From a virus (taxonomy: Duplodnaviria > Caudoviricetes): a DNA stretch of 64,000 bases. Shown piece after piece: positions 43,233-62,000 of the stretch. Where the stretch lies: the IMG/VR virus record IMGVR_UViG_3300037067_019009, positions 128,001 to 192,000 of that record, one strand, 5' to 3'. The position numbers and the translations under genes are program-made. A model generated the notes under the pieces. That model made no database searches and was not told where the DNA came from. It worked only from the letters and a program-made list of their open reading frames with translations. Every line of letters starts with the position of its first letter. The stretch's first letter is position 1.

Positions 43233-43937
43233 ATGAGTTTTAGAGTCGCTAAAACAGTTCCATCCGGAAATGCTATATCCATAGCTGGAGACAGTGCGAG
43301 CCGTATATATCAAGCATATAGTGGGTGTGATACCATTGCACACATCAACGACGTACAGATTGGCACTCTTGAAGGCATAACCATCTCTATCACAAGAGAA
43401 GTAGTTCCTCAATATACGATGAATGGGCGGGATCCTAAGGGATTCGTCAAAGGCAAACGTGGTATCGCGGGAACACTGTCGTTTTCGACGTTTGACAGGC
43501 ACGCCCTTATTTACGACGCTTTCAGGTCCAAGTTCAACGGCACCGGTCCTGGAATGCGTTATGGAAGTACTAGACTTATAGAGCTGCTTGATTCCACGCA
43601 GCAGTACGCTACCGGTGACAGATACGGCGATCCGGTAACGGTTGATGCTGGAAGAGCAATAAGCAGCCTAAACTACGGAGGCCGAGCGGACATCCAAGAG
43701 TTCATGCGAAGTCGTGTAGTGCAGTACTCCGATGAGATTCCACCATTCAATATTACCCTAACTATGATAAACGATAGTGGGGCCGCCTCTTACTTGACCG
43801 TGGAGGGGGTTGTAATCGTAAACGAGGCTTACGGGGTTAGTATCGACGACTTGACTTCCTCTAGCGCGTTTACTTACGTAGCACGGAAAGTGACCCCGCT
43901 TACATCTCTTACTGACTTCTTTTACCCAATAAGTTAA
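43233..43937 (+). CDS. Tail tube-like protein
   Basis: YSGCD, ITISITREVVP, KGKRGIAGTL, DEIPPFNIT, GVSIDD; follows the sheath gene. Confidence 0.72.
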   Translation: MSFRVAKTVPSGNAISIAGDSASRIYQAYSGCDTIAHINDVQIGTLEGITISITREVVPQYTMNGRDPKGFVKGKRGIAGTLSFSTFDRHALIYDAFRSKFNGTGPGMRYGSTRLIELLDSTQQYATGDRYGDPVTVDAGRAISSLNYGGRADIQEFMRSRVVQYSDEIPPFNITLTMINDSGAASYLTVEGVVIVNEAYGVSIDDLTSSSAFTYVARKVTPLTSLTDFFYPIS

Positions 43938-43957
43938 GAGTTGGTATGTAGTTCTTT

Positions 43958-44000
43958 TAAGGCACCAAAGAAAAAATATTTCCGCGGTGCCTTATTTTTT
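43958..44000 (+). terminator. Rho-independent terminator overlapping a promoter
   Basis: TAAGGCACC...GGTGCCTTA followed by TTTTTT. Confidence 0.65.
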
Positions 44001-44020
44001 GTGTGCCTGCTGCCTATAAT
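43972..44020 (+). promoter_or_regulatory. Putative phage promoter
   Basis: AAAAATA 43972-43978 and CTGCCTATAAT 44010-44020. Confidence 0.6.
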
Positions 44021-44032
44021 ATATAATGGAGC

Positions 44033-44647
44033 GTGCGTATGCGCTACGATCAGTATTATGATACCCACTCAGCCGTAGAACTTGCGGCATATTTACTTCC
44101 TCCTCACGGCACGGGACTGGGAACAGATCCAATTCCTTTTGGAACCTTATCTCTTTTATCCATATCTACCCACAGAGATAAGTTCCCAGTCTCAGCCCTT
44201 TCGCGTGTACGTCCCAGGGGGTTTACTTCAGGACACTCTACCATCGCTGGAACACTAGCTTTCAACACAGTAGACAGGGCTATGTTTACCAGGATAACCG
44301 ACGAAGCGAACGCTTCTTACTTTACAGACCATGTAAAGGCCGATGAACTTCCTCTGTTTGATATATCTATAGTGCTGGTGAATGAGTTTGGGCGTGCAAG
44401 CTACTCTACTGTCATTGGTGTTACTTTGTTGGATTGTGGAGTCACCTACTCTCTAGAAAATATATTACTTACTGAGAATTATTCGTATATGGCGCTGGAT
44501 TACGTTCCGCTGCAGCCGTTACTTGGCTACCGTGGAGAGAAAACATCAGCAACTAGGAGCTGGATACAAACAGTTACTGACGATGTTCCCCTGTCCAGCT
44601 CCACTAGTAGCGAGGGTACACTTATAGTGATACCTCCGGTGGTGTAA
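44033..44647 (+). CDS. Tube-fold paralogue (possible tube initiator or baseplate protein)
   Basis: SISTHRDKFPV, RGF..G..TIAGTL, DELPLFDI; similar to 43233. Confidence 0.62.
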   Translation: MRMRYDQYYDTHSAVELAAYLLPPHGTGLGTDPIPFGTLSLLSISTHRDKFPVSALSRVRPRGFTSGHSTIAGTLAFNTVDRAMFTRITDEANASYFTDHVKADELPLFDISIVLVNEFGRASYSTVIGVTLLDCGVTYSLENILLTENYSYMALDYVPLQPLLGYRGEKTSATRSWIQTVTDDVPLSSSTSSEGTLIVIPPVV

Positions 44648-44650
44648 AGC

Positions 44651-45484
44651 ATGTTTCCAAAGACTGGTTTTGTAAAAGGTACTTACCGTGCCCCATCTTA
44701 CACATATGCAAAGGATGTGCCTAAGTGGGTGATGGTGGATCAGTTCAACTCGAGCTACTACTCAGGCCTGGATATATCAGTGTACTTCGGCGCGGTGTAC
44801 ATGGATGAAGTCATAAGTCTGCAATACCAAGAGGTAGAGCAGGTAAAGCCCAACTTTAGTTATGCTAGCTATACGTATAATAGCATATCGAGGGGAGCGC
44901 GACTAGTAACGGGCAGCTTTACCATAAACTTTAAGGAGTCCGGTTACCTATATAACCTGTTAAAAACTTTACGTAATACCGGTACTATGGAGGCCAACCT
45001 ACAAAGGATGTATAGCGGGGAAGCCGATTACCCATATTCTAAGGAAGCTAAAGATCGGCTGGAGAAGGTTTCCGTGGTTCAGGATGCATTAGCTAATGAC
45101 TTCACTTTAGAAGATTTCGTAGCTATAGCGTCATCTGGCTCGAAAGTGTACAACAAAGATAACTATCAAGAGGTTATGGATCAGCTCGACACGGCTATAT
45201 GGGAGCCCGCAGCACACTACAATGACAGGGACGTAGTGACAAAGCGCAATTCAGAAACTAAGCGTGGGGTTGACTTGGATACCGCTAAATTTCGGGGGCC
45301 GTCTTTAGGCTTCGATGTAATAATAAAGTATGGCCAACCGGAGGATGCCGGAAAGGGCAAACCCGGTTGGGGAACCATTGAAACTGTAAGGGGCTGCCAC
45401 ATAACGGGAGTCTCCAAAACGATAGACGATACGGGCAAGAACACCTTGGAAGTCTACTCGTTTGTTGGGCAGACTGTAGAATAA
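44651..45484 (+). CDS. Tube-fold paralogue (possible tube initiator or baseplate protein)
   Basis: YYSGLDI, RGARLVTGSFTINF, FDVIIKYG, EVYSFVG. Confidence 0.6.
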   Translation: MFPKTGFVKGTYRAPSYTYAKDVPKWVMVDQFNSSYYSGLDISVYFGAVYMDEVISLQYQEVEQVKPNFSYASYTYNSISRGARLVTGSFTINFKESGYLYNLLKTLRNTGTMEANLQRMYSGEADYPYSKEAKDRLEKVSVVQDALANDFTLEDFVAIASSGSKVYNKDNYQEVMDQLDTAIWEPAAHYNDRDVVTKRNSETKRGVDLDTAKFRGPSLGFDVIIKYGQPEDAGKGKPGWGTIETVRGCHITGVSKTIDDTGKNTLEVYSFVGQTVE

Positions 45485-46563: not shown

Positions 46564-47235
46564 TTGGATTTTTTAACTCAAGAACAAATTGATACTTTGA
46601 AGAAAGAGTATGGTAAACTTTATAAAGTTCCTATATGCGGGACTGATTACATTATCCGTCCGGTGTACAAAGCTGATTGGGAAATAGTCACTAAACTTGC
46701 TGCGGATAACCCCAGTGTAGGAATGCCGGAGTTAGATGAGAAGCTCGTAGACATCGCGTTAATTGGACCCAAGCCGGATGTTACCAAAGGCGGGTGGGCC
46801 ATAGTGCCGGCGGGAGTTATTCCCACACTGTCGAAATGGATACAGGCGAAGAGTGGGTTCCTGGTTCCTGATCTCGCCGGGCAGCAGGAGATTTCCAGCG
46901 AGCCTATAGGTGGGGACGCTGTCTCTATTTATGGTAAACCGTCAGATGAAGACGTTGCCACGGCTAAGACACAAAGCAGTCTCAAACTAAACCTGGTCAG
47001 GATAGATGACGATTACTATATCATACGACCTCTTTTGCGACAAGAGTGGAGGGCGATTATGAAGTCCGCTCCTGAGGACTCAGGAGAAAGGGACTACCTT
47101 ATAGCACAGAGGTCAGTTGTTTGGCCTAAGAAGGTTAACTGGGACGAGACGCCAGCCGGGTATTGCTCTAGCATAACTGGGGCCGTAATGAATATTTCCG
47201 GATACTCGGGAGTTACCTCTGTAGAAGAGTTGTAA
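46564..47235 (+). CDS. Tail assembly chaperone-like protein with two tandem domains
   Basis: LTQEQIDTLKKEYG; YIIRP...W...PAG...SG(F/Y) occurs twice. Confidence 0.65.
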   Translation: MDFLTQEQIDTLKKEYGKLYKVPICGTDYIIRPVYKADWEIVTKLAADNPSVGMPELDEKLVDIALIGPKPDVTKGGWAIVPAGVIPTLSKWIQAKSGFLVPDLAGQQEISSEPIGGDAVSIYGKPSDEDVATAKTQSSLKLNLVRIDDDYYIIRPLLRQEWRAIMKSAPEDSGERDYLIAQRSVVWPKKVNWDETPAGYCSSITGAVMNISGYSGVTSVEEL

Positions 47236-47238
47236 AGC

Positions 47239-47799
47239 ATGGTTACATATGTAACCAGTGTATTAGGAAAAGATTATCGATATAGGTTGGTTACCCGGCG
47301 TGAACTCCGCACTCTTTTTGAGGAGGCGCAAGGGGATCATATTCTATTCGAGGATCTGGTATTCTCGTTGTCTGTAGTAGAAACCCCAGAGGACTTTCCA
47401 GGTTTGGACGAGTGTTTAGCTGGGGTGCCGACAGCTGTCGTCGAGCAGGTGCTGGCGAATAGCGGCTATGCTCCCGCCGCAAGTAGCGGGGAGGGCGTAA
47501 GGCTTACTCCGCCAGAAGAAAAAGCTTTAGAGTGGGTCAGGGGGGCGCAGAGTCGAGTAGATATGCTTATCTGCTTTTGCTTCCCCGGAATTACTTTGAA
47601 TTCACTAGAGGATATGAATCCTGAGGAGTACCAGAAATATGTAGCTGGGGCTCACATAGTAGCCAGAAGCCTTTATGGTATGGATATAGCAGCGTTTTTA
47701 GATCCAGACTCCGATGGGGCATCTCCTGCTTCAGCGCGTTCTCCTCATCCCCCTGGGCCAATCGAGCCCTCGGGATCGCCAAACTACCTTTTCGAGTAA
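47239..47799 (+). CDS. Tail assembly chaperone-like protein 2
   Basis: Third copy of the same domain (YRYRLVTRRE...LAGVP...NSGY) plus a C-terminal extension. Confidence 0.6.
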   Translation: MVTYVTSVLGKDYRYRLVTRRELRTLFEEAQGDHILFEDLVFSLSVVETPEDFPGLDECLAGVPTAVVEQVLANSGYAPAASSGEGVRLTPPEEKALEWVRGAQSRVDMLICFCFPGITLNSLEDMNPEEYQKYVAGAHIVARSLYGMDIAAFLDPDSDGASPASARSPHPPGPIEPSGSPNYLFE

Positions 47800-47842: not shown

Positions 47843-50800
47843 ATGGAAACTTATCAAAAGCGAGAGCATAGTAATAGCCTAGCTAAATGGGGAGCCTCCG
47901 CTGGCGCGGTGGCTGCTCTTGTAGTGGGACGTAAAAAGATAGCTGCCTACGCTGTCGGTGGGCTGGAAAAAGTCGCGGCTAACCTAGCAAAAAGTGAACG
48001 AAGTCATGCCGAGTTTGCTGTTACGCGTTGGGTTAGAGACTTGGAGCAGACTGGCGAATCTTTGCGTAATGCCGCCGCTGTACAAGTTGGGCAGGCCAGG
48101 ATGGAGAAGATCCTGTCCACTGGTATAGAAGAAGAGCTTCCTGCTTGGGGAGCCCAACACATAAAAGCTCTGTTTGGAGCTAAAGGTGAGCACTCTTGGA
48201 TTTTTGCTGGGGCTCGGCGAGGTGTTCCAGAGATCTCCGGCTATCTGGAGTCCCCAGAGTTTGCTGACATGGTTGAGGCCGCAGGTGGTGTAGCTTCGGC
48301 TACTAGAGCGATTCTACGGGCTAGGCAAGCAGCCAATGTAGGGGATCTTTTTACTTCCGGCGGACTTCCAGAAAACGTGGAGCGGCAGTTAGCGAACGCT
48401 CTTCGCGTACATGAGAAACATGCATGGGGGGAGTTCGAGCGTCTAGCCGAGCCCGCTGCCTTTGGCGTTCATAATGCCGGTAAGGTGGGGTGGGGAAGGC
48501 AGCTACTATATGCGAGTGGAACTAAGGAAGCCACCTTATCTGAAGTAGAAGGGATGCTGAGTTCGGGGTCTGTCTCAGAAGGCATGCGCGAGTCTCTTAA
48601 CAGATTATTAGGTGATAAGAGAACCATAGAAGAGATCGGGAAGCGCGTAGGGGCAAGCCAGGAGAGGGTAGAGCAAGTAGTTCGCAACCTGCGTGTAGAG
48701 GGGTTGTACAATACAGAGGCTGGGCTAAAAGACCTGCGGGGTCTTTCTGAAGGCATGGCCGGGCTACATGACTATCTAGGTACCCACTTTCAAATACCCA
48801 TAATACCCTACATATCTGGTTTCAACCCACTCAGCATGGCTCCATGGCTCGCCAAGTCTGGGGCCCCCAAGTCTGCGTTTATCGGTTTTAATGAGACCGA
48901 AAAGCAGCTTGGACTTCTAGACAAACTGCGGCCTGGAATGAATCTTTCCGTCTATCAAGGAAAGGCTGTTGGAGTTAGGTTCGTAGAGGGGGGAGTGGAG
49001 ACGGCCTCTGAAGTCGAGGGCACTGTAAGATTGTTGCAGTCCGGCGCTGGGGGATTTCAGAGTAGGGTTGTAGAGAATTTGCTGGCCTCCACAAACCAGG
49101 AACCAATCGGCGGAGTCAGGGGCTTTTTTGGGTTCGGGCAGCACCAGCCCTCACTACTGAGTAAGTTGGGATCGATTTTCAGTAAGTACAGTGATCCAAG
49201 ATATCCCTCCACGGCACTAGAGCTAATATACGGACAGGGTAAGGACGCACCAGAAGAAGCCGTTAGATCCATAACAAGTTTTCTGAAACGCCGAGGACGC
49301 ATTTCATCTGAGGCTATAGAGCGCCTGGTTTCGGAATCTCCGGGGGTAACTAAGGGCTCACCCATTGATGAGGTGCTTAAGAACTTCTCTAGTGATGAGG
49401 CAGTAAAAGAATTCTTTTTCAAATATCGTAGAGGCTTACCCGAAGAATATCTTGGAGCATCAGGTAGTCTTCGTAATTTGTTAAAGGATTTTGATGCGGA
49501 TCCCCTTGGGGTGATCGGGCGCAAAAAGATATTAGCGGATACGGACTTCTTCACTATAAATCTCCTCGGCTCCCCCGATCCGATAAGTGGCGTGGACTTG
49601 ATGCGCCAGGCTCTGCTGGATGAGTACGTATTAAAATACGGAGATCCGATGTGGTCGAACGCTAAGCCACTCCTTGAAAGCTTGAAGGGCCTTGGGCTAA
49701 CTGATAAGGAGTTAGTGGAAGCGGAATCTTTTGTGCACGGCGCTAATCTTTCTAGGTTACTGGGAAGAGGATCATACAAAGATGCTATTTCGTATATGAC
49801 CGAGGGTACCCAGTCAGGAAGTGTGCAGCGTACAGCCGAGCAGTTAGTTAACACAAAGCTATCCATTCTGGAGCCATTTACCAAGCCTAGTAAGGTTGAG
49901 GGCTTGCCGGAAGTCTTTGCTATTCGTGAAGGCGAGAGCATTCTTGCGTACATAAACAGAAGCATAAAAGAAGGCAAGTCGGTTCGGGAAATTTTAGAAG
50001 AGTTGCCAAGATCCGCTGTGGTGCAGCAGGGCATACCGGCTTTCTTTAAAGGAATAAAGGATCCGGTGAACTTTACGACTGGGTCCCTTCCATCTTACTT
50101 CATGGCGGAGAGACTCAATACCTCCATAGCGGATTACGGGCTTGGTCTTTCTCCTGAGCACTTAGGCAGTGGCTGGGATATACTGTCCGGTCTCATATTT
50201 AAGAGGGTGCTGCCTGGTTGGGCAGCCTACGAAGCGTGGAACTATCTAAACTATGAGTCTGAAAACGATTTCGGGACGAGCCCAAAAGATGTTATTACCA
50301 ATGTCAGAGCTAGAGCCAGGATAGCTAGAGCTCATCTTACGGGGTGGATGCGGGCGGATGATCTATTCCCGGGATTTGATCGCAACCCCATACTTGCTCC
50401 GATATTATCAAAAGGCAATGTAGATGAAGAGCTTCAGCAGTTGTCTTCCGGCTACGAACCGGTAAGGCAAGGCAGGTACTGGATGTTTGGAACCGGTACG
50501 CCTTTCACCGGTGGAAAGATCCAGTACTATCTACCAGACCCGTACCAGAGAGCTCACTCCAACTGGGAGTCTGCCGATAATGCTGATCTGTCTACTGCCA
50601 GATCGTGGTCTCATTCCATACTACCGACACCTCGTTACCCACTCAGTTTCGTAGAGCACTTCGCAGATCCTTACTGGTGGGAGTCCGCTCATTCTATGGG
50701 ATCTAATCCTGACAGGCCCTATGTTATTTCCGGGCCAATGAGTGACCCCAGTACTCCATGGGGACCAATAGTAAATAGCACGATAGGGCAAGTGCTAAAA

Positions 50801-53800
50801 CCAACTAGGGTTTTGTACCCAGAGTACGATCCTAGAAACATGAAGAGCGGGACAGCTTACTATGGCTATACGCCTACTGAGGATGATTACCTGCTAGAGT
50901 ATGAGCGGAATGAGGGGGACGACTACTCCTATGATGACCTTATACTCTCTGGTCCTACAGCCGCTAGAACTATGCCTGCAGGCGCTGTACAGCTGGCTAG
51001 CGTTGGTGGGAGATATGGAGGTGGTTATGGGTCGGCTGGAATTGGGTATGGCGGCGCGGGAGAAGGCGGCTATGGCGGCATAGGGACCGGCGGTGGCGGA
51101 GGTTATGGAAATCTTACATCCGGCAGAGCGGTAGTAAGTATGGGGCGCGGCGCCGCTTATCTAGGCACCTCTGGAGGAGGACGAGCCAGACTTAAATATC
51201 CTCATGGCGCTGAAATAGTTGGTTATCTAGGAGATCCTACTGACACAGAATATCCAGATGTGGTAGGACAGTCAGCCTCCAGTCTTAGGGAGCTGGCTGG
51301 TATTTATGGTTGGGGAACGGCTGTACTCACTGGAACAAACGATACTTATGGCCTGAGGATGGACGATCCAAGTGCGGCTTATGGTGCTGGAGCAAGATAC
51401 TGGAGCGCTAACATTGGTGGCTTGGGAGGAGTCGCTAGTGAAATTGGTAGAAGATTTTTATACAAAAGGCCAAAGACTGCCGAGTATTACGATCCGGTGC
51501 CGAACTCTCTGGCCGACACATGGCTGCCAGGTTCAAGCTACTTCACTAATTTTCAGCGTGGAGACCCATATGCTGATAACAATGGTTTGTTGAGGCTTCC
51601 AGGAGAGGCTTACGAAAGGGCGCATGGAGTAAAGCTCATGCTTACACGTGCGAGCTCAGTAGGAAAATCCCCTAATGAACTGCTGCTCGAGCTTATACAC
51701 CAGAAAGAGCCCCTGGATGAGGAAGCGGAAAAGATAACAGGTTTGGGTACGCAGCTGCACAAAGTTATCCAGTCCCAGTGGAGACGGCAAGGGGTGCTAC
51801 TCGCGTCTGAAGTTCCTATTTTCGATGACAAAGTTGGAGTGTCCGGCCACATGGACGCGGTTCTTAATTGGAATGGCAGTCCGGTGATAGCTGAAATAAA
51901 GACTATGTCGGAGAAAAGGTACAATATGGGTGGGCTTTTCCCTGAACATCAGGAACAGCTTAATTTCTATATGCATACCACAGGAATAAGCAGGGGATTG
52001 ATGGTGTACGTTAATAGAGATGATGCAAGGGATGTAAGGACCACTTGGATGGATTACTCCCCTGGGCTGTACGCCTCTACGATGAACAAGTTGAATTCCG
52101 TGCGCAGACAGGCCAAGTCTTTAGTCGATTCTGGAGTCATCTCTAGGGCAGATCTATATGATGATATAACGCGCTTCGAAATTCTTAGCGATGTTGCGGC
52201 ATATAGTGATGAGTTCTATGGCATGCGGGATTACCTGAGCCATCAACGACAAGTAGGACAACTCGATGACGCTCAGTTTGAAAGGTTTAAGGCCGCTAAA
52301 AAGCGGGCCATGCACTCCAAAGAAAAATACAACCTAGATTCCTACCGATTTGCTGGCAGCAGTACTACACAGAAGAGTTACGTAGTGGATAGGATAGTTG
52401 ATCCTAATACCATACTAGTTGAGGGCAGCGATACTCCGATACGTCTGGCCGGGGTGAGAGGATCTGGCGAGCGTATAGCGGAATACTTCTCCAAGCACCA
52501 CATGGACGGCGGAAACTTGATTCGTGGGTTACTTGGGATGGAGGATGAAGAGTTTTCGTCCCCAGCTGAGGAAATGTATGCTAGGGTGTATGGTATTCGG
52601 AAAGGTTCTGAGATCGATGTGGGGGTAAGCACGGATCCAGAGGAGCAGTACGGCAAAGACATGTTCGGGACGGAGCGTGTTGTCCTCTACCATAATGGCG
52701 TTAACATTAGCCATGACATGCTTATGCGCGGGTTGGCGGTTGAAAAAGAAACCGACTATTCATCTGCTGGAGTAGAAGCAAGATTTACTCCAATCCAAAG
52801 AGGGTTCGGTACCCTGTATGAAGAACTGGCTCACGCGGATACGCCATTCAATACCAAGCTCTCCAAGGTAAGGAGCCCGGTGGAGGAGTATATTAGAACT
52901 CAGGTATATGGGAAGCTGGGAACCTCGTGGTCGCACCCCATAGCCTCCTTCATTACTCCAACAATAGAGGCTTACGCGGTCAGGGATCCAATACTTGCCG
53001 GTGTTTCCATGGCGGCATTTGCTTCGATGTTCGGTAGAACCAAAAGCATGAAGGGCAAACTGGCTTTAGTTGGTTTGGCCGCTGGAGCTGCGGCTTCCTT
53101 GGGATTGAAGGCTCATGAGTTAAGTACAGGGGAGCCATGGATACCAAAGAGGGTACGCAAACGGCGAGAAATTGAAGAGTACTACGATATCTTAAAGTAC
53201 ACGAAGTACATGGGTCTGTACGAATACGCTAAGAGAGAAGCGAAAAGTAAAGAGTCTTTCGATGTAGAGGGTTTCCTGTTGGAGGAGGCCACGGCAGGAG
53301 ACGAGCGTAATCGCATACGTAGGGGCTTAGTTAAACGTAAGGCTAAGTTGAAGCACGATATGATGTCGTCTACTCCTACTCCAGCCGAGCAGCTTCGTTC
53401 AATAAACTCTAAGATAAAAGCGCCCGGTGACAAGTCCGTTAAACTGACAAACAAAGACCAGCTCAAGATAATAAATCAAGAGATCAACAGCATAGCTGGC
53501 TATAGAAAAGACGTGTCCCTTGGACCGTGGGCTTCCCAAGCCATACTATACAAACAGATGGCTGACCGTACTATGTATGCTGCGGAACCCACTGATTTTA
53601 GGACTATGATGGGAGCTCTGCCTAAGTACGAGCGTGAGATTCTAATCAAGGCCATAGCTAATTCCACACCAGAAGAGCGCAAGCGTTTATATGGTCTTTT
53701 ACCTGATTATGAGAAGCGCCTCCTCGGTCCACATTTAGGGTTCTCCGACAAACTGCAGCGAATGGAGTTAGCGGAGTACTTTAAAACTCATACGCTCCCT

Positions 53801-54148
53801 AGCAAAGACTGGGAGGGGTGGAGAGAAGACGTTCCCTTGGAAGCGCTAAAGATACGCACCATACGCTATGAAGGATTGGATCCGATGGACTTCGGTGTTT
53901 ATCCGCAGGTAGTCGAACAGGTTGATAGGACTGCCGCGAATGTGGAAGTGCCTACAGTGAATGGTAAAGGTTCTGATATAGAGAACGCGTTAGCCGATGT
54001 ACTTGCGGGCCAGGGGCTGTCCAATCTAAACGTCCATGTGAGAGTTGTTCCGGACAGGCAGTCTCACGAGGATGTTATCGATGTTAATATGGATATTCGT
54101 CACGATAGGAGAGCAGACTTAGTCTCTGCCCTACGAAAATACTACTAG
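47843..54148 (+). CDS. 2101-aa virion protein at the tape-measure position, with PD-(D/E)XK nuclease and SNase-like domains
   Basis: Follows the chaperones. GTQLH...E...GHMD...EIKT...QLNFY (~51640-52130); VDRIVDPNT...IRLAGV...GLA (~52380-52740); Gly-rich linker and hydrophobic segments. Confidence 0.75.
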   Translation: METYQKREHSNSLAKWGASAGAVAALVVGRKKIAAYAVGGLEKVAANLAKSERSHAEFAVTRWVRDLEQTGESLRNAAAVQVGQARMEKILSTGIEEELPAWGAQHIKALFGAKGEHSWIFAGARRGVPEISGYLESPEFADMVEAAGGVASATRAILRARQAANVGDLFTSGGLPENVERQLANALRVHEKHAWGEFERLAEPAAFGVHNAGKVGWGRQLLYASGTKEATLSEVEGMLSSGSVSEGMRESLNRLLGDKRTIEEIGKRVGASQERVEQVVRNLRVEGLYNTEAGLKDLRGLSEGMAGLHDYLGTHFQIPIIPYISGFNPLSMAPWLAKSGAPKSAFIGFNETEKQLGLLDKLRPGMNLSVYQGKAVGVRFVEGGVETASEVEGTVRLLQSGAGGFQSRVVENLLASTNQEPIGGVRGFFGFGQHQPSLLSKLGSIFSKYSDPRYPSTALELIYGQGKDAPEEAVRSITSFLKRRGRISSEAIERLVSESPGVTKGSPIDEVLKNFSSDEAVKEFFFKYRRGLPEEYLGASGSLRNLLKDFDADPLGVIGRKKILADTDFFTINLLGSPDPISGVDLMRQALLDEYVLKYGDPMWSNAKPLLESLKGLGLTDKELVEAESFVHGANLSRLLGRGSYKDAISYMTEGTQSGSVQRTAEQLVNTKLSILEPFTKPSKVEGLPEVFAIREGESILAYINRSIKEGKSVREILEELPRSAVVQQGIPAFFKGIKDPVNFTTGSLPSYFMAERLNTSIADYGLGLSPEHLGSGWDILSGLIFKRVLPGWAAYEAWNYLNYESENDFGTSPKDVITNVRARARIARAHLTGWMRADDLFPGFDRNPILAPILSKGNVDEELQQLSSGYEPVRQGRYWMFGTGTPFTGGKIQYYLPDPYQRAHSNWESADNADLSTARSWSHSILPTPRYPLSFVEHFADPYWWESAHSMGSNPDRPYVISGPMSDPSTPWGPIVNSTIGQVLKPTRVLYPEYDPRNMKSGTAYYGYTPTEDDYLLEYERNEGDDYSYDDLILSGPTAARTMPAGAVQLASVGGRYGGGYGSAGIGYGGAGEGGYGGIGTGGGGGYGNLTSGRAVVSMGRGAAYLGTSGGGRARLKYPHGAEIVGYLGDPTDTEYPDVVGQSASSLRELAGIYGWGTAVLTGTNDTYGLRMDDPSAAYGAGARYWSANIGGLGGVASEIGRRFLYKRPKTAEYYDPVPNSLADTWLPGSSYFTNFQRGDPYADNNGLLRLPGEAYERAHGVKLMLTRASSVGKSPNELLLELIHQKEPLDEEAEKITGLGTQLHKVIQSQWRRQGVLLASEVPIFDDKVGVSGHMDAVLNWNGSPVIAEIKTMSEKRYNMGGLFPEHQEQLNFYMHTTGISRGLMVYVNRDDARDVRTTWMDYSPGLYASTMNKLNSVRRQAKSLVDSGVISRADLYDDITRFEILSDVAAYSDEFYGMRDYLSHQRQVGQLDDAQFERFKAAKKRAMHSKEKYNLDSYRFAGSSTTQKSYVVDRIVDPNTILVEGSDTPIRLAGVRGSGERIAEYFSKHHMDGGNLIRGLLGMEDEEFSSPAEEMYARVYGIRKGSEIDVGVSTDPEEQYGKDMFGTERVVLYHNGVNISHDMLMRGLAVEKETDYSSAGVEARFTPIQRGFGTLYEELAHADTPFNTKLSKVRSPVEEYIRTQVYGKLGTSWSHPIASFITPTIEAYAVRDPILAGVSMAAFASMFGRTKSMKGKLALVGLAAGAAASLGLKAHELSTGEPWIPKRVRKRREIEEYYDILKYTKYMGLYEYAKREAKSKESFDVEGFLLEEATAGDERNRIRRGLVKRKAKLKHDMMSSTPTPAEQLRSINSKIKAPGDKSVKLTNKDQLKIINQEINSIAGYRKDVSLGPWASQAILYKQMADRTMYAAEPTDFRTMMGALPKYEREILIKAIANSTPEERKRLYGLLPDYEKRLLGPHLGFSDKLQRMELAEYFKTHTLPSKDWEGWREDVPLEALKIRTIRYEGLDPMDFGVYPQVVEQVDRTAANVEVPTVNGKGSDIENALADVLAGQGLSNLNVHVRVVPDRQSHEDVIDVNMDIRHDRRADLVSALRKYY

Positions 54149-54238: not shown

Positions 54239-55264
54239 GTGAGATTAGGCCTAGATGAGGGGCTACCTGCAATACAACTGATGAAGTTGGTTCCTGGGCG
54301 CACCCCAGGGCAGAAAGCCGCTAACCTTAGAGATATAGTCAGGGACCTAATTAATCGTGGAGAATTGGCTCCATCTAAGGCTGTCATAGCTAGCCCCGAG
54401 CGGGGGTATGCTGATTTATCTTACTCTGAGGTTCTGGAGGAGTACAACGCTCTAATCAAGCGCGATGCTGTTCCAGTAGAAAAAGTTCCATATGTGTCAG
54501 TGTCTTCTAAGGAAACCACCATAGTTATTGGAGATCTGCACACACCAGAGCACAGGATGGATTTACTCATGCGTATTGCTAAAGAGCATGAGGGGTCTAG
54601 GCTTATAATAGCCGGTGACTTAATGGATTTTCAAAGATTTTCTAAGTTCACTAAAAATGTAAGGTCAGCGAACCGTAGTCTCGAGCAGCGTATGTCAGTG
54701 GTGGAACTTCTTAAGACAGGGACGGCTGTTGTAGACATACTCCGTCATTACTTTTCGGACGTCGTAATAAAGCGTGGTAACCATGATATACGTCTAGCTT
54801 CAATGTTGTCCCAGTGTTTCTCAGATGGAGCAGAACTCGCGGACTTTTTATTCGAGTCCATGTTTGCGAATATGCCAAATGTTTCCATGATGAGTTCTGC
54901 TATAGAAGATTTCTTTATGCTGAAGCGCGGAGACGCTTGGGTTGGGCACTGGGATTGTATCTCCGCTAAAGTAACTAATCGCGGCGCTAACGAGGCAGTC
55001 GATTGGATGTTGGATAATGACTACATAACAGCTCAAGGGGAATGGAATGTTCTGATACAATTGCACACGCATCTAGCCAGTCTTGGAATACATAGAGGTA
55101 AACTGGCTATCGAGTGCGGGTGTATGTCTAGGATGCAGGATTATACGTGGGAAAAGCCAGGGAAGTACAGATATCCAAGGAATGGCTACTTTGAGCTAGT
55201 GCAGTACGATGGGATAACGGATTGGGAGGAGAGTAGGCTTCGTCTTTTGAGGACGAAAGAGTAG
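54239..55264 (+). CDS. Calcineurin-like metallophosphoesterase
   Basis: GDLH, AGDLMD, GNHD, VGH, HTH motifs. The true start may be the in-frame CTG 54212 after AGGAGG. Confidence 0.85.
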   Translation: MRLGLDEGLPAIQLMKLVPGRTPGQKAANLRDIVRDLINRGELAPSKAVIASPERGYADLSYSEVLEEYNALIKRDAVPVEKVPYVSVSSKETTIVIGDLHTPEHRMDLLMRIAKEHEGSRLIIAGDLMDFQRFSKFTKNVRSANRSLEQRMSVVELLKTGTAVVDILRHYFSDVVIKRGNHDIRLASMLSQCFSDGAELADFLFESMFANMPNVSMMSSAIEDFFMLKRGDAWVGHWDCISAKVTNRGANEAVDWMLDNDYITAQGEWNVLIQLHTHLASLGIHRGKLAIECGCMSRMQDYTWEKPGKYRYPRNGYFELVQYDGITDWEESRLRLLRTKE

Positions 55265-55277
55265 CCTAATAAACATC

Positions 55278-56195
55278 ATGACGAGTACTATTTTTTATAC
55301 ATGGTCAGGATTAGCTGACGCTTTACTTGCTATGGGAGCAGTGAGAAGTTACTGTAAGGCGTTCAATACCACGGTAGATGTTGCTGTGTCTGAGGAGAGC
55401 CTGATGCCTATTCTAACTAATGCATGGTTTGTTAGAAAAGTCATACATGTGGCCGCCGGGCAAGAGATAGATACAAGTAGCTACGAGTCTACCGTAGACG
55501 TCACGGATGTCGATAGGGCAGTTTGCGTGGAGGCCGAACTTCAACTCCGTAGAGAAAGAAAAGCTGTAATAGACGCCGAGATAACTAAGGTAGCAGAGAA
55601 GCTTGATGTTGCGGAGGACAAAATACAAAAACCGCCGGAGTATCCCATGCTTGAAAGGGACACGCCCACCTGGAATAAGTTAATGGGGTATGTGCATTCT
55701 ATCCACACACAGCTCAATGTGGATTTCGAATTAGATGAGCATCGGCCTCTTATGCCTTCTGTTCCCGGAATAGCCGAAAGGACTAGAAAATGGCTCAACG
55801 CGAACAGGCAGGATATCCGGCCTGGTATTCCTTTTATATTGGTTCAAGGACTGGACTGGCTTGATTCCTACGGCATGGAGTTTATTTATCCCGACTGTAT
55901 GGAGTGTATAGTCGTAGACGATCTGGATCTCAGCTTAGTGGTGGGTCTGGTGTCACACAAATTGTGCGCTGCCGTAGCTGGTCCGGTATCTGGAGGCCTT
56001 TCCTATCTAGGATGGGCGGCCAACGTGCAACTAATTATAGAGTTCATCAATAAGGATGTAGAACCTTATTGGCAGTTGTCCAGGCATGACAACGCGGTAT
56101 CCTTTAAGATAGATGACGCGGATAAGGCAATTATGCTGTCTAGAAGCTTAGCCGCTATTTACGAGAAGCGGCTTGGTGTGGAGGTAGTTTTATAG
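55278..56195 (+). CDS. GT9-like (GT-B) glycosyltransferase, divergent
   Basis: SGLADALLAMGAV...PILTNAWFVRKVI at the N-terminus and AGPVSGGLSYLGWAA near the C-terminus resemble GT9 motifs. Confidence 0.45.
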   Translation: MTSTIFYTWSGLADALLAMGAVRSYCKAFNTTVDVAVSEESLMPILTNAWFVRKVIHVAAGQEIDTSSYESTVDVTDVDRAVCVEAELQLRRERKAVIDAEITKVAEKLDVAEDKIQKPPEYPMLERDTPTWNKLMGYVHSIHTQLNVDFELDEHRPLMPSVPGIAERTRKWLNANRQDIRPGIPFILVQGLDWLDSYGMEFIYPDCMECIVVDDLDLSLVVGLVSHKLCAAVAGPVSGGLSYLGWAANVQLIIEFINKDVEPYWQLSRHDNAVSFKIDDADKAIMLSRSLAAIYEKRLGVEVVL

Positions 56196-56196
56196 T

Positions 56197-56763
56197 ATGA
56201 AGGTACTAATAGACCCAGGTCATGGTGGAAAAGACTCCGGCGCCTTTAGCGCTGGGGTGGCAGAGGAAAACATAGTGTTGGAGTTTGCCGCAATGTTAGG
56301 GCACTTTTTAAGAGAGCAGGGAGTGAAAACGTCGTTCACTAGAACAGATGATAGATTCATCGAAGTGATGGATAGGGCCGATACTATCAGTGAGGGAGAT
56401 GTTCTTATCTCGTGTCATGTTAACTCGGCTGCTAATTCCTCTGCAAATGGGGTGTCTGTGTGGTATCACGGAGGACAAGCGGACTCCAAAGATTTGGCCA
56501 GTTCGGTGTTGACGGCTATTCTGAGTACAGGATTTTTAAGGAAATACAACGCTGGGGTCATAGCCGATACTACGAGATATCCAAAAGGTGGGTTTGGGGT
56601 GTTGCGAGAGGCTACAGAAAGACGGGCTGCCGGCGCCGTGTTGGTGGAGCTGGGATTTATATGCAATCCCAGTGACCGTAGAGTTATGACTGATTCTAGA
56701 AAGAGGAATCTTATGGCCATGGCTTCAGCTAAGGCCATTACGGACTGGATCACTAGCCGCTAG
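56197..56763 (+). CDS. N-acetylmuramoyl-L-alanine amidase (Amidase_3), endolysin
   Basis: IDPGHGGKDSGA, E, ISCHVNS, AVLVELGFI; no cell-wall-binding domain. Confidence 0.93.
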   Translation: MKVLIDPGHGGKDSGAFSAGVAEENIVLEFAAMLGHFLREQGVKTSFTRTDDRFIEVMDRADTISEGDVLISCHVNSAANSSANGVSVWYHGGQADSKDLASSVLTAILSTGFLRKYNAGVIADTTRYPKGGFGVLREATERRAAGAVLVELGFICNPSDRRVMTDSRKRNLMAMASAKAITDWITSR

Positions 56764-56789
56764 TTACATGAAGGGGAGGATACCATAAC

Positions 56790-57641
56790 TTGTTAAACTG
56801 TGAGGAAAGGGTGCTTTACAGTAATTATGGACGGGATGATGGGCATAGGATATACTGCTGCGATGCTTTTGCTTTTCTAAAACAAGAAGCGGCAGACACG
56901 CGCAAACTTAGAAGTTCTGGTAATGAGGTTGGCTACCGGACAATTGTAACCAGTCCACGTTACAATACTGGAAAGGCTTACGGTAGGATAAATGACCGTA
57001 CGTCTCGTGGAGTCTACCTGGAAGAGATGGAAAAAGCGGGAGAGCTACTTTACGAAGTAGCGGCTGACGATTGTGTTTTCTTCTTAAACGTGGGAGACGA
57101 TTCCGAGTGGCCAGACCGCAGTTGGCAGGTAATGAATGCTTACCGCTTTGCTGGCTGGGATCTAGTCCAGACTCTGGTCTGGACCAAGCATCAGTCGGGT
57201 AGGGGGCATTTTACCCCCATACTGGGAACCAAGCATGTTACTAGCGTGACTGAAAATATTTTTATCATGGTAAAGGATCTAAGATTCTACACACTGGATA
57301 GACTCGCAGTTGGTGTGGAGTACACGGACAAGAGCAACATAGACAGATTTAACGTTGGTCAGGATCTTAGGTGCAGGGGGAACTTGTGGTTTATTCCTTA
57401 CGAGACCACTGGCCGCTCTCACAAAAAGGGGCGCCCGGCCACGTTTCCGGTGAACCTTCCTAAGATGTGTATAAAACTAAATGGCTGCAAGTACCCGGTT
57501 CTTGATCCCTTTGCTGGGTCGCTGACGACCGCTGTAGCGTGTGAGGAGCTTGAGTTACCATATACAGTATTGGAGTCCTCAGAGCAGGCGGTAGAATTTG
57601 GCATCCAGAGGATACTTAAGGTGTCTAAGTATGGAGACTAA
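56790..57641 (+). CDS. DNA N4-cytosine/N6-adenine methyltransferase (beta-class motif order)
   Basis: VTSPRY before PATFP and VLDPFAGS.TT. Confidence 0.82.
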   Translation: MLNCEERVLYSNYGRDDGHRIYCCDAFAFLKQEAADTRKLRSSGNEVGYRTIVTSPRYNTGKAYGRINDRTSRGVYLEEMEKAGELLYEVAADDCVFFLNVGDDSEWPDRSWQVMNAYRFAGWDLVQTLVWTKHQSGRGHFTPILGTKHVTSVTENIFIMVKDLRFYTLDRLAVGVEYTDKSNIDRFNVGQDLRCRGNLWFIPYETTGRSHKKGRPATFPVNLPKMCIKLNGCKYPVLDPFAGSLTTAVACEELELPYTVLESSEQAVEFGIQRILKVSKYGD

Positions 57642-57951
57642 TTACGAAATAGAACAGATAGGGGGGGCCGAAAAAGAGATCTACCGAATAGAAACGGCGG
57701 CAGGTTCTATTTTTAACTGTGAGTTCAAGCCCACGCTTAGGGTAGTTGAGTGTGAAAGCAGCAGTGAATATGGAGATGTGTTCTTAGAGGGATGGGCAGT
57801 CTCCGTTGGAAGGCAGATAAGATTCGTAGGTATAGCCGCGACACCGGAAGTTGGGGGTCTGGTTACAGTGTCGGACTATCGACCGGTGGATGGGCAGGAT
57901 GACATGGAAAGGGATAGCGAATTAATAACGAATGTCAGGCGACTACGTTAG
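57631..57951 (+). CDS. Hypothetical protein
   Basis: Start re-called at ATG 57631. Confidence 0.55.
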   Translation: METNYEIEQIGGAEKEIYRIETAAGSIFNCEFKPTLRVVECESSSEYGDVFLEGWAVSVGRQIRFVGIAATPEVGGLVTVSDYRPVDGQDDMERDSELITNVRRLR

Positions 57952-58058
57952 AAAGGGACATAGTTAAAATAAAACCAACACACGAATATAATAACATCCC
58001 AGAAGAGTGGACTAGCCCATATGATTGGGCCTACTTCTGTAGACTGGACACGACAGAG

Positions 58059-58559
58059 GTGGGAGAGGCCGCGAGAGTGGCGAGAAAAGACGCGGAGTTT
58101 TTCAGAGGCACGGGCTATGCTTCGTATGCGTATAATTGTGGGCCTGTAGAAAAAGCGGGGGAGCAGGTTGTTCGTAGGTTTTTCGACTACTTTAGCATAC
58201 GATACACTAAGAACGGAGACCCCTACCTTCCCCCGTTTATAGTTAGTGGGCTTAATATAGATGTGCATACCAGGGCCTTAAAATTCAAAGAGCAGTACGA
58301 TCATTATGGACTAACCGGAGGAAATCTGAATATAGAGAGGTTTCCTGGAATAGTTCCAGAGTTGGGGTTGCTGCGGTCTGCCGACATCTATGTTTTCTGC
58401 GGATTTGATGTGTGCAGCTATGAGGGTTTTTTGTTTGGGTGGACGGACAGTGGGACTCTAGCTGAGGTGGAACTATCTACCGGGTGCAAATACCCCGCGA
58501 AATTTGTAAAGCTATCAAAACTTTATAGTCCCCATTCATTGTTAGATGAGTTATGTTAA
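58059..58559 (+). CDS. Hypothetical protein, possibly degenerate PD-(D/E)XK fold
   Basis: AGE..V..FF, IDVHT, YVFC, GW motifs. The frame is open upstream to an AGAAAGGG SD near 57950, so the start may be non-canonical. Confidence 0.5.
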   Translation: MGEAARVARKDAEFFRGTGYASYAYNCGPVEKAGEQVVRRFFDYFSIRYTKNGDPYLPPFIVSGLNIDVHTRALKFKEQYDHYGLTGGNLNIERFPGIVPELGLLRSADIYVFCGFDVCSYEGFLFGWTDSGTLAEVELSTGCKYPAKFVKLSKLYSPHSLLDELC

Positions 58560-58927
58560 GTTTGGTTCGGTCAGGTATAGTAAGGTATGGTTTAGTCATG
58601 GAGGTAAAAACAAAAATGGAAAACACCAGAGCAGCCACTAACGATTGTAATAAGACGGTAGACGTTCTTTATAATTACTACGTGAGTGCACACGAATTAT
58701 TGGGAGTACATGGCAGTACGCTAGAGGGGCGCATTAAAACTTTAGTTGAGATCATAATGCCCCCTGGGCAGCAACTAGATGCTCTCAAATCCCAACTAAC
58801 AGACACTCTGTGGAGAGCACTCAATGATATGCGAGAGACTCTCCATGGGATGTACACTCGTAGTTTGGACCAACTTGGTGTGGATGCGGGAAATGTTATT
58901 CCGCCATCAGGCCAAGGGGTAGGTTAA
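58553..58927 (+). CDS. Helical hypothetical protein
   Basis: Likely start ATG 58616 after GGAGGT SD. Confidence 0.6.
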   Translation: MLSLVRSGIVRYGLVMEVKTKMENTRAATNDCNKTVDVLYNYYVSAHELLGVHGSTLEGRIKTLVEIIMPPGQQLDALKSQLTDTLWRALNDMRETLHGMYTRSLDQLGVDAGNVIPPSGQGVG

Positions 58928-59010: not shown

Positions 59011-62000
59011 ATGCCGATATATGATTACACAAGAGTATCAGTAGGAGATAAGGTTAGAGATAACCAGACGCTGGAAGAGGGCACTATTGTCGATATGCAG
59101 GCGATGGGCCAGTGGACAGTGCTGATTACCATCGTAGTGGGTCTCTCCGGGATACAGAAAAAGCTGCTGGTTCAAGTAGAAAGGCCTACGGGAATCGGAG
59201 GTTTAGCCACGACCTCTCCAATCTCCACTCTGGAAGTCAGGGCTGACGAGCTGGGTAAGGCCGGGCAGAAGGTTGTAGCTAAAGCTAAACCTGATAGCAT
59301 TACACCACAAGTTGCAGTAGAGGCTAGGGGCGCGGCGGGAGGGATAAGCCCAGCTAAGCTTGTAGGTAAGTCTAAGCTGGAAGAGCTTAGGCTTTATGTA
59401 GATAAGACTTATCTCGACAGGCGCATAAATGGGGTAGAGAAGGAAAAGATTCTCTCTCTCATGGACGATTTAGCGCGTCTTCCGAAGAGCAGACAGGAAA
59501 GCCTCTTACGAGAGATAATACACGGGCCTGACGAGTCTGGTGTTAAAGCCGCTATCAACTCGGCACTCGCCGAGGCAGGAAAGACTACTTACTCTGAAGA
59601 ATCTATCGCCACATTTGATTTGCTTGTGACCAGGCATAGTTCACTTATAGGAGCTGAGGCTGAGCATATAGCCTTTAAGTCGTCCATTGATATGGGCAAG
59701 CGTGCGAGTATGCTCGGCGGGTTGTCAATGGATTATACGGGCACAGCGGCTCCTATGATAAGGGATATATCCGAGGCCTTATCAGCAGGCGTGGATCCCA
59801 GGGATTTAGTTGAAGATCTGTTTCAGATTCATAGAGGTAACTTATCTCCCGGTAGGCTTGGTGAGCACACATCTGCTCTTGAGGGAGTCCTGTCCGGTGG
59901 TAGATGGTACGATCCATGGTGTATTCGCGATACGGCATGGGATTTAGCGTTAGAGCTGGAAGAAGCGTTTCCTGGACATACTAAGGTATATAGCCCTAAT
60001 GAATTTGCTGATGCTGAGTATGAGAAGAAGTTGTCCAGAGAAGGTGGCACACTTCAACCATTCTTTGAATCAAGGGCAGAGAATGCTACGCTGCGGTCTA
60101 TGCATCGGGCTGGTACTAGGCCGAGTGGTTTTCTCCCTACTGCTGGGGTGTCCGTAGCGCAGTACAACGAGGGTGTACTTGGTAAACTTATTAGCGGACA
60201 GCCTATGGTGGTTGAGCATGAAGGTCTGATGTTCAGAATTACTGGAGCCGCACAGCCGATAGTAGGTAAGGAGCCTTATCTTATAGGGGAGCTACTAAGC
60301 CGCGTGGATCCCAGCAAGGTCGGCATTATGACCGAGGTTTCCGTGGCCGGAGAGGCAGGAATCGGTACTGTGCATGAGCTACTATCTAGATTTGTAGGCG
60401 GAGAAGGCTACTCCGTTTGGGCCGAGTACTTGACGGGAAAAGATCCTATCTCTAACTTATCAGCTGCTATTGAGAACTTTGTTCCTAAGCCAGAAGATCC
60501 TAGGTTTGAGGAATTTTTATCTGCCTCTTATGGTGATGCAAGAGATCCTGAGGCTTTGTTCAGATCTAAGGTAATGTCGAAGATCAGGAAATCTGGCATA
60601 CCTCAGAGACTCCTTGAGGATGTAGATCTTCTTACTAGGGAACCTGTAATACTGTCCAGTATTTATGATGATGCCTTCGTGCTTTATTATAAAAAGGCAT
60701 TGGAAGAGGCTTACCGTACGCCAGGCCCAGTTGATTTAGGAGCCGTGTTTAATCGTGTATTCGAATCCAAAGAAACAGATGCCATAATATCTCTTCTGAC
60801 TCGTAGGGCTGTTATGGGACAGATTGACGTAGACGCCGATGTGTCTCTCTTCGCCGAGCTCACTAAGACTAACGAAGGATTTGAAGACTATCTTACTAGG
60901 GAAGCAGAGATGCAGCCCATTACAGGGGGCCGGCGGGACGACCCAGTATCGGAGCTTATGAAAAAGGCTTCTCCCGTGCAAGAAGGAATAGACTACAGAA
61001 AAATCCTTCTTGACATGGATCTACATGGGATTACGTTGACCGCGGAAGATATGACTGCGTCTATGTCGAAGAGCAGGTTCAACGAACTTCTTTTTCAAGG
61101 ATTGGCGAATGAGGCCGAATTCACTACTGTCAATGGCAAGCTGGTTTTGATCCCGAAAGATCTTCCATTATTTTTGAGGCGTTTATCAGAGATCGATACT
61201 CTTTCTGGTGGATCGATAGCTGAGGCATTTAAGCTTTCCTACACCACTATAAATGGTAAAGCTGTTCTGGCTGTTCCTGTTGTAAACGTAGAAACTGGTA
61301 CTGGGTATAAAGCCGCGGGGCATGCCTCCACTGGGGAAACTATATTGGAAGAACAACGAGGCAGGGGTCGACTTTTGATAAGCGGGGAGCCAGTAACAGT
61401 AGAGCTTCCATGGCATGCTGGATTAAAAGAGCGCCCTGTGTACAATACTTCTTATACGGCAATAGCCGGAGCCGCCGTGCCAGGAGAAGCTGCTCCGATC
61501 TATAAAGTAGCCGCGGGTTATATATCTAGCGCTACCACTCCTATCGAGTATACAGCCGAGATCCGCAGGCTGCTGGACGTTGTAGAAGGTAAGCAACGCA
61601 CCATTTTAGGAATAGACATCGAAGCCAGTATGGATCCCTATAGTTTTGGTAGAGTATGGGAGGCCGGGGTTCAGGCTTATACGAGAGAGGGAGAGGGTAA
61701 ATTCGCTACGGCGGGCGGTAAGTTATTCACTACTAGGTCTATTACCAAAGAAGAGGCTAGAGGCATGGAAGTGGTGCAAGTCGGTAGCGAGTCCGAGGTA
61801 ATAGAAAGAGTTTATAAGGAACTTCGAGGACATCCTGATGCCTACAGTCTGATTCATAATGAGGTGTACGATTTTCCACAGTTGGCTAAGAGGGCGGAAG
61901 CTCTCGGTATGCCCGAAGAGGTAGTGGGGTATTTCAAATCCCAGACCGCGGATAGAGTCATCGACACTATGCGCACGTCCACCCCACTGTGGAACCCCAA

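Follow-up and report, generated by a model that had tools for sequence, protein, structure and literature searches.

The locus described here raises the question of what a DNA nuclease could be doing in the middle of a giant phage protein whose gene lies where a tape measure gene would be looked for. The window, a stretch of 64,000 nucleotides (nt) covering positions 128,001 to 192,000 of the IMG/VR virus record IMGVR_UViG_3300037067_019009 (Caudoviricetes), is part of a single record of 212,668 bp. It contains a giant open reading frame (ORF) of 2101 amino acids (aa) which, judged by its sequence, is the gp145-family giant protein of a jumbo myophage of the 0305phi8-36 type: it aligns with gp145 at 31% identity over aa 735-2099 (tblastn/BLASTP), it occupies the syntenic position, and it carries the scaffold motifs RLPGEAYE, RFEILSDVAPYS and AHLDTP..TK. 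Within this protein lie an intact-looking nuclease domain of the PD-(D/E)XK class and, behind it, a degenerate domain with the fold of staphylococcal nuclease (SNase). We regard it as an even call whether the giant protein carries a virion-borne, probably ejected, accessory nuclease acting on DNA ends. The features concerned are the following (positions in the window, residues in the giant protein):

47843-54148, plus strand: giant ORF, 2101 aa, homologue of 0305phi8-36 gp145
51560-51616, plus strand: scaffold motif GDPY...RLPGEAYE, N-terminal border of the nuclease insert, kept in members without the nuclease
51629-52144 (aa 1263-1434), plus strand: predicted PD-(D/E)XK nuclease domain of the Cas4/lambda-exonuclease/RecB type, without iron-sulphur (Fe-S) cysteines
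52151-52207, plus strand: scaffold motif DLYD..RFEILSDVA.YS, C-terminal border of the nuclease insert
52361-52789 (aa 1507-1649), plus strand: predicted pseudo-nuclease domain with the SNase fold, an oligonucleotide/oligosaccharide-binding fold (OB-fold), placed by profile and model alignment

Fold of the nuclease domain

Similarity to known nucleases was found with family models, single sequences and profiles. PHROG 1706, a family of Cas4-like proteins, matches aa 1269-1396 with an E-value of 5.8e-19, and a phmmer search against PDB sequences retrieved the Cas4 protein SSO0001 (4ic1), with GHMDA, EIKT and QLNFY of the giant protein aligned to GRADA, EIKT and QLQIY. A profile of 25 family members, compared with the PDB, matched only Cas4 (4ic1, E 7e-4) and staphylococcal nuclease. 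In Pfam, the giant protein taken as a single sequence gave PD-(D/E)XK matches below threshold only, and its homologue P0026 passes the PDDEXK_1 model with 24.6 bits.

The same fold is predicted by an AlphaFold model of aa 1230-1720, which has a mean predicted local distance difference test score (pLDDT) of 81, exceeding 90 over the nuclease. Residues 1263-1434 of the model superimpose on Cas4 4ic1 with Z 14.8 and a root-mean-square deviation (rmsd) of 2.7 Å over 149 residues, on the Cas4 of a Cas4-Cas1-Cas2 complex (7mi5) with Z 14.7, on lambda exonuclease and LHK-Exo with Z about 14, on MGME1 with Z 13.4 and on Dna2 with Z 11. Lambda exonuclease, LHK-Exo, RecE and MGME1 have the same Fe-S-free PD-(D/E)XK core (Z 13-14 over 150-178 residues), a likeness that is undetectable by sequence and seen in structure only. 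With Cas4 (SSO0001, 4ic1; 7mi5) and the free phage Cas4-like exonucleases of PHROG 1706/1990 the domain likewise shares its fold, and the G.xDA, (E/D)IKT and QxxxY motifs align residue for residue, but Cas4 is a free protein of about 200-300 aa with four cysteines holding an Fe-S cluster, whereas here a cysteine-free domain is embedded in 2101 aa and no CRISPR or recombinase context surrounds the giant ORF. Since the domain lacks cysteine, in this protein as in all 43 of 43 homologues, the Fe-S cluster that defines Cas4 proper cannot be bound. An assignment as Cas4 proper was rejected on this ground and on that of a score under the cut-off of the cas4 model TIGR00372.

Conservation of the active site

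The predicted catalytic set consists of H1306 (window position 51758), D1338 (51854), E1351 (51893), K1353 (51899), Q1372 (51956) and Y1376 (51968). With the nuclease domain as query, an exhaustive search returned 632 representative clusters at E <=1e-3, of which 219 reach E <=1e-10; the best 150 are mostly proteins of at least 1500 aa, with the domain at about residues 1200-1800. Conservation was scored on 177 aligned sequences sharing 28-50% identity, in which 171 relatives (97%) have the complete D/(D,E)/K triad, and H1306, Q1372 and Y1376 are conserved in 174 relatives each. Among the six relatives without the full triad, three show a conservative D-to-E change, and the other three have lost K along with Q and Y. 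Triad retention of this order, at such divergence, is the signature expected of a working active site, and the correlated decay in a few members, combined with strict retention elsewhere, is the pattern of a working enzyme. The nuclease domain is intact-looking, and its catalytic residues appear to be under selection.

These results bear out much of a sequence-only reading of this DNA made earlier. The ORF and the positions it had given for the GHMD aspartate and the EIKT glutamate were correct, the RecB/Cas4-type residue set that it described without Fe-S cysteines proved to be real, and two checks that it had proposed, domain parsing with AlphaFold and conservation of the catalytic residues, came out in its favour, the former with both the PD-(D/E)XK and the SNase fold.

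A pseudo-nuclease behind the nuclease

The SNase-like domain was recognised from the family profile, which matches residues 6-110 of staphylococcal nuclease with E 0.004, and from the model, which superimposes on SNase with Z 10.6 and an rmsd of 2.5 Å over 107-109 of about 130 residues and covers SNase residues 6-124. The homologue P0032 passes the Pfam SNase model (28 bits, cut-off 21), and the giant protein itself, searched as a single sequence, has no Pfam SNase match up to E 10. The OB-fold and R35 are held in common with staphylococcal nuclease (PF00565), but DPNT, VRGSGE and DMFGT align to its DGDT, VDTPE and DKYGR, and its key residues correspond to the following:

SNase D21: N1522 (52406)
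SNase R35: R1534, kept
SNase D40: R1539 (52457)
SNase E43: G1542, with E1543 adjacent
SNase R87: T1610 (52670)

The canonical residue set occurs in none of the 189 family sequences, 144 of which have T or S in place of R87. Because the Ca2+-binding and catalytic residues are replaced family-wide, an active SNase was rejected; the alignments clearly point to an old pseudo-nuclease, common to the whole family, whose fold has been conserved. The domain would most likely serve as a nucleic-acid-binding or structural module.

Distribution and inheritance of the nuclease insert

Some homologues run directly from RLPGEAYE to DLYD..RFEILSDVAPYS in the domain mapping, and since they join the two scaffold motifs without anything between, the nuclease of about 170 residues is an insert at this place. 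Family loci were retrieved from IMG/VR by an alignment query with the DLYD..RFEILSDVA.YS scaffold motif, a single-protein query having retrieved none; the giant proteins of all 80 loci obtained are alike in size (median 2077 aa), and only 7 of the loci have the insert, although more than 200 clusters of giant proteins possess it. In a tree built from the scaffold only (FastTree, 101 rows, several long branches), presence of the insert takes five state changes, compared with about 32 when the labels are shuffled. The giant protein belongs to a 19-row clade with the insert in every member, and when insert and scaffold are compared pair by pair, their identities rise and fall together (Spearman 0.66; means 37% and 36%). 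The insert is an inherited, integral and dispensable module, passed on mostly vertically: vertical inheritance and co-divergence show that it is not a roaming cassette, and its frequent absence, together with decay in the giant protein's own clade, shows that it can be dispensed with. A mobile homing cassette was also considered and rejected, as the inheritance is vertical.

Other cargo is found on the same scaffold. P0050, which has no nuclease, carries a subtilase domain (Peptidase_S8, aa 991-1252, Pfam E 1.6e-63) a short way ahead of the nuclease insertion point, at about the place that the hinge occupies in the giant protein. Inteins are present at four conserved scaffold sites of the homologues, and two of these sites flank the nuclease. 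Large insertions, of about 400-520 aa or, in P0016, about 180 aa, were observed in P0007, P0014, P0016, P0017, P0020, P0030 and P0047, at positions 18, 211-224, 441 and 462 of the aa 1230-1720 segment. Most of these homologues have LAGLIDADG/Hint intein domains in Pfam, and all of the insertions leave the catalytic motifs of the nuclease uninterrupted. One gp145-family scaffold is seen to exchange cargo of three kinds, nuclease, subtilase and inteins.

Gene order and the tape measure question

The giant ORF stands in a cluster of tail genes. A tail sheath gene (41321-43213) lies upstream, and two tail-tube paralogues and a gp142-like gene (43233-45484) are found between the sheath gene and a pair of chaperone-like genes, which have BLASTP matches to gp144 (E 3e-10 and 7e-4) and to gp143 (E 1e-4) and end 44 nt before the start codon of the giant ORF. 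The order of sheath, tube, chaperones, gp145-like giant, second giant and hub is also that of Bacillus phage WH1, where gp096 is annotated as a virion structural protein, and of Moorella phage MTATph1, and the sheath-to-hub order recurs in nearly all of the 80 IMG/VR loci. Our literature search found nothing on phages WH1, KLEB27-3 and MTATph1. The neighbouring genes and the remaining parts of the giant protein are the following:

46564-47235 and 47239-47799, plus strand: two tail-chaperone-like genes, homologous to 0305phi8-36 gp143/gp144
48587-48682 (aa 249-280), plus strand: stretch resembling sigma-70 region 4 or a helix-turn-helix, Pfam E 0.0024-0.0034, below the cut-off
49943-50842 (aa 701-1000), plus strand: conserved helical domain with the motifs GYEPVR.GR.W and DRPY..SG
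50846-51229 (aa 1002-1129; model residues 302-429), plus strand: Gly-rich hinge, predicted to be disordered (AlphaFold pLDDT <50)
52991-53116 (aa 1717-1758), plus strand: Gly/Ala-rich hydrophobic segments resembling glycine zippers, from translation and hydropathy
53120-54145 (aa ~1760-2101), plus strand: conserved C-terminal region of the gp145 family, from family alignments
59011-64000, plus strand: second giant ORF, 1821 aa, in the position of gp146, the annotated tape measure of 0305phi8-36; it runs past the window to 64476 (genome C1:187011-192476)

Conservation within the family is highest in aa 701-1000, which are modelled as mostly helical with good confidence. For the conserved region aa 701-1229 (model pLDDT 68) no solved relative was found, the best Foldseek match having E 1.5 and the best match of a wide VIA search Z 3.7, and an ESM Atlas look-up with aa 700-1060 gave no usable match. 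The Gly-rich hinge and the hydrophobic stretch described by the sequence-only reading on either side of the two nuclease folds were recovered, the hinge with a Gly/Tyr-rich core at aa ~1053-1116 (nt 51000-51190) and the hydrophobic stretch with a hydropathy peak at aa 1739-1758, as was the degenerate state of the SNase-like fold. At the place equivalent to aa 1717-1758, the homologues P0026 and P0043 have sub-threshold Pfam matches to glycine-zipper 2TM domains. A helical linker (aa ~1435-1500), beginning at the DLYD..RFEILSDVA.YS motif, lies between the two nuclease folds.

The same reading had placed the nuclease in a tape-measure-position protein, and this part of it stands only literally. 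The gene does lie directly downstream of the tail chaperone pair, as a tape measure gene would, and its product has Gly/Ala-rich hydrophobic segments. In 0305phi8-36, however, Hardies et al. assigned the tape measure to gp146, the product of the next giant gene, on grounds of tail length, and described the chaperones as 'one gene removed' from it (PMC2147016). The giant protein combines a helical part (aa 701-1000) with a disordered one (aa 1002-1129), two globular domains (aa 1263-1649) and a hydrophobic stretch (aa 1717-1758), and the model of aa 1230-1720 consists of globular domains with no long helix. Among complete ORFs, the second giant also varies far more in length (about 1000-2800 aa) than the gp145-like giant. 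Because of the gp146 assignment, the globular and disordered middle and the length variation of the second giant, a simple tape-measure reading is doubtful. Across loci L002-L081 the two giants tend to be long or short together (Spearman 0.76, n=30, uncorrected for relatedness), which is compatible with both being tail-internal. Short gp145-like forms (about 1400-1650 aa) have short second giants (about 1000-1630 aa) downstream.

As for presence in the virion, which had also been expected, it is supported for the orthologue by the annotation of its record: the GenBank entry names gp145 a structural protein of the virion and adds 'identified as virion protein by mass spectrometry'. The giant protein of the present genome would by homology be located in the virion as well.

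The second giant ORF and the intervening genes

The second giant ORF encodes a protein with one cysteine in 1821 aa. BLAST finds no similarity between it and gp146, and a homologue is present in L002, the nearest relative among the IMG/VR loci. Its aa ~920-1035 weakly match TREX1 and the exonuclease domain found in family-B polymerases (E 0.016-0.1), and this segment is probably a DEDD 3'-5' exonuclease. An IDVDAD (DxDxD) motif lies at aa 606; despite it, aa 350-850 gave no RNA-polymerase signal by sequence.

The two giant genes are separated by a block of 4.9 kb (window 54239-58927). Its six or seven genes include one for a metallophosphoesterase (phrog_221, also weakly matching phrog_1745, 'DNA transfer protein'), one for a DNA methyltransferase (56790-57641) and one that is endolysin-like (56197-56763). 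A comparable gap is present in L002 and L003, which are the closest relatives, and in most other family loci the giants abut.

Possible role of the nuclease and alternative explanations

According to the proposal that we favour, the giant protein would sit in the tail or baseplate channel, adjoining the leading DNA end, and would leave the particle with the DNA at infection, when its hydrophobic glycine-zipper segments may engage the membrane. Being pre-made, the nuclease could then use Mg2+ to act on DNA ends inside the cell ahead of any phage gene expression, and the SNase-like fold would help to hold the nucleic acid. Its role would be accessory, in attack on host or defence-related DNA or in optional trimming of the incoming genome ends. 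An accessory role is favoured over an essential function in assembly or entry because the insert is often absent or decayed, and because the genome encodes a separate nuclease outside the window (locus L082, C1:47549-48277, minus strand, 268 aa), which matches PDDEXK_1 with 70.8 bits and has the canonical Cas4/AddB-type four-cysteine pattern; sequence comparison detects no similarity between this free-standing enzyme and the embedded domain. The proposal also accords with the composition of the giant protein, which has no cysteine in 2101 residues where about 28 would be expected (P about 7e-13); 22 homologues of about 2000 aa (P0003-P0051) have none or one each. Exclusion of cysteine is in keeping with a protein that is extracellular and translocated, and it accounts for the lack of the Fe-S cluster; absence of the cluster would suit a protein that survives outside cells and probably refolds after its passage.

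Several points weigh against this proposal. The scores of the giant protein lie below the cut-offs of the established models (TIGR00372 cas4, E 3.5e-8, 33.5 bits where 65 are required; Pfam PDDEXK_1, 15 bits where 22 are required), the insert is present in only 7 of the 80 IMG/VR family loci and absent from 73, and P0023 and P0027, which belong to the giant protein's own seven-row clade, have decayed sites, so nuclease activity can be lost. The mass-spectrometric support comes from the record annotation of an orthologue at 31% identity. Several copies of folded 20-kDa domains would fit poorly in the lumen of a tail tube, and an end-directed nuclease arriving with a linear genome would endanger that genome too. 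What the analysis shows directly is the identity of the domains, the conservation of residues, the synteny and the modularity; the virion location of this particular protein, its ejection into the cell and the substrate of its nuclease are inferred, as are the roles that the sequence-only reading had proposed (end processing, attack on host DNA, counter-defence).

A first alternative is that the nuclease carries out an essential step of entry, resecting the 5' strands of the phage's own terminal repeats as the DNA leaves the tail, so that circularisation or recombination could proceed without synthesis of new protein. The structural neighbours (Cas4, lambda exonuclease, RecE, MGME1 and Dna2) are all DNA-end-directed exonucleases, and in lambda-like phages a tail-internal protein adjoins the leading DNA end. 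The genome of 0305phi8-36 is non-permuted with a 6.5-kb terminal repeat (PMC3357382). An essential step is nevertheless hard to reconcile with an insert that is missing in most of the family and has been lost or has decayed several times, and with the separate canonical nuclease of recombination type in the genome, so we consider this explanation rather unlikely. It is also unlikely that the domain is a structural module that holds DNA ends or mediates oligomerisation, possibly as a ring like the toroids of lambda exonuclease and Cas4, without cleaving in vivo. The neighbouring SNase fold is a pseudo-enzyme throughout the family, and P0023, P0027 and P0106 keep the nuclease domain with a decayed site, yet the retention of D, E and K in 97% of relatives, and of H, Q and Y, at 28-50% identity speaks for a working active site.

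Action at another place or time, either outside the cell, where the nuclease would, once the tail has contracted, clear extracellular or wall-associated DNA at its tip, or within the producer cell, where it would degrade host DNA late in infection, before assembly, seems quite improbable. Virion-borne depolymerases are common. An SNase domain occurs on the baseplate hub of the BtI1 prophage (Hardies et al., PMC2147016). The domain considered here, however, lies in the middle of a protein of 2101 aa, flanked by hydrophobic segments of membrane type, its fold class requires free DNA ends and Mg2+, and the gene is placed among tail-internal genes and not among fibre genes. Very improbable indeed is a selfish element resembling a homing endonuclease at a conserved gene site, comparable to the inteins of the family: inteins do occur in several homologues at the very scaffold motifs lying on either side of the nuclease (P0002 positions 18 and 211-224), but Hint or splicing motifs are missing, the nearest relatives are exonucleases and not homing enzymes, and the insert has been inherited mostly vertically, diverging along with the scaffold and retaining its catalytic residues over a long time.

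A bolder version of delivery with the genome would involve both giant proteins as one DNA-end-processing machine brought in by the virion. A nuclease ring at the cytoplasmic exit of a channel formed by the hydrophobic segments would resect the threaded leading end in the 5'-3' direction, the dead SNase OB-fold would hold it, and the second giant, through its probable DEDD exonuclease, would trim the opposite strand 3'-5'. This arrangement is a long shot; if it were true, the genome would arrive recombination-ready, or resistant to end-dependent nucleases of the host, before gene expression.

Relation to known systems

The enzymatic cargo of tape measure proteins is usually muralytic, as in T5 pb2 and the tape measure protein of phiIPLA35. 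Phage-tail enzymes are, to our knowledge, nearly always wall-degrading, and among nucleic-acid enzymes only the P23-45 virion RNA polymerase is a well-studied case of fusion to a tail-internal protein. In gp96 of Thermus phage P23-45 a tape measure is joined to this polymerase, which is believed to be active at the entry pore (PMC10770324), and this fusion is the closest published precedent: there too, a nucleic-acid enzyme is part of a giant tail-internal protein thought to enter with the DNA. In P23-45, a siphovirus, the RNA polymerase is N-terminal and the carrier a proven tape measure, whereas here a predicted nuclease lies mid-protein, in a myovirus and possibly not in a tape measure. Muralytic tape measures and the 'polyvalent proteins' (PMC5512222) are likewise giant, modular and virion-delivered, with exchangeable enzyme domains.

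The nearest cultured counterpart is gp145 of 0305phi8-36 itself, which shares with the giant protein its homology, its position after gp143/gp144 and both the PD-(D/E)XK and the SNase-like domain. It differs in having about 60 additional residues inserted between its catalytic D and DIK motif. In addition, the second giant gene of 0305phi8-36 comes immediately after that of gp145, whereas in the present genome the 4.9-kb block intervenes. The nuclease of gp145 is neither annotated in its GenBank record nor discussed in PMC2147016, and our literature search found no paper on a nuclease in gp145 or in a tape-measure-position protein. The survey of polyvalent proteins (PMC5512222) does not mention the gp145 family or RecB/Cas4 or SNase domains. 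A survey of jumbo phages (PMC7824862) mentions neither Cas4 nor SNase, names 0305phi8-36 only for its RNA polymerase, and includes another virion-associated nuclease of restriction fold, the T4 gp4-like head completion protein.

An intact-looking DNA-end nuclease inside a giant virion protein is a feature of hundreds of clusters from uncultured jumbo phages and of cultured Bacillus phages such as 0305phi8-36. As this phage and its host can be cultured and its gp145 has the same domains, the question is directly testable. If the nuclease is active and ejected, these phages deliver a nuclease together with their genome, which would bear on the takeover of the host, on escape from end-dependent defences and on the survival of a linear genome at entry.

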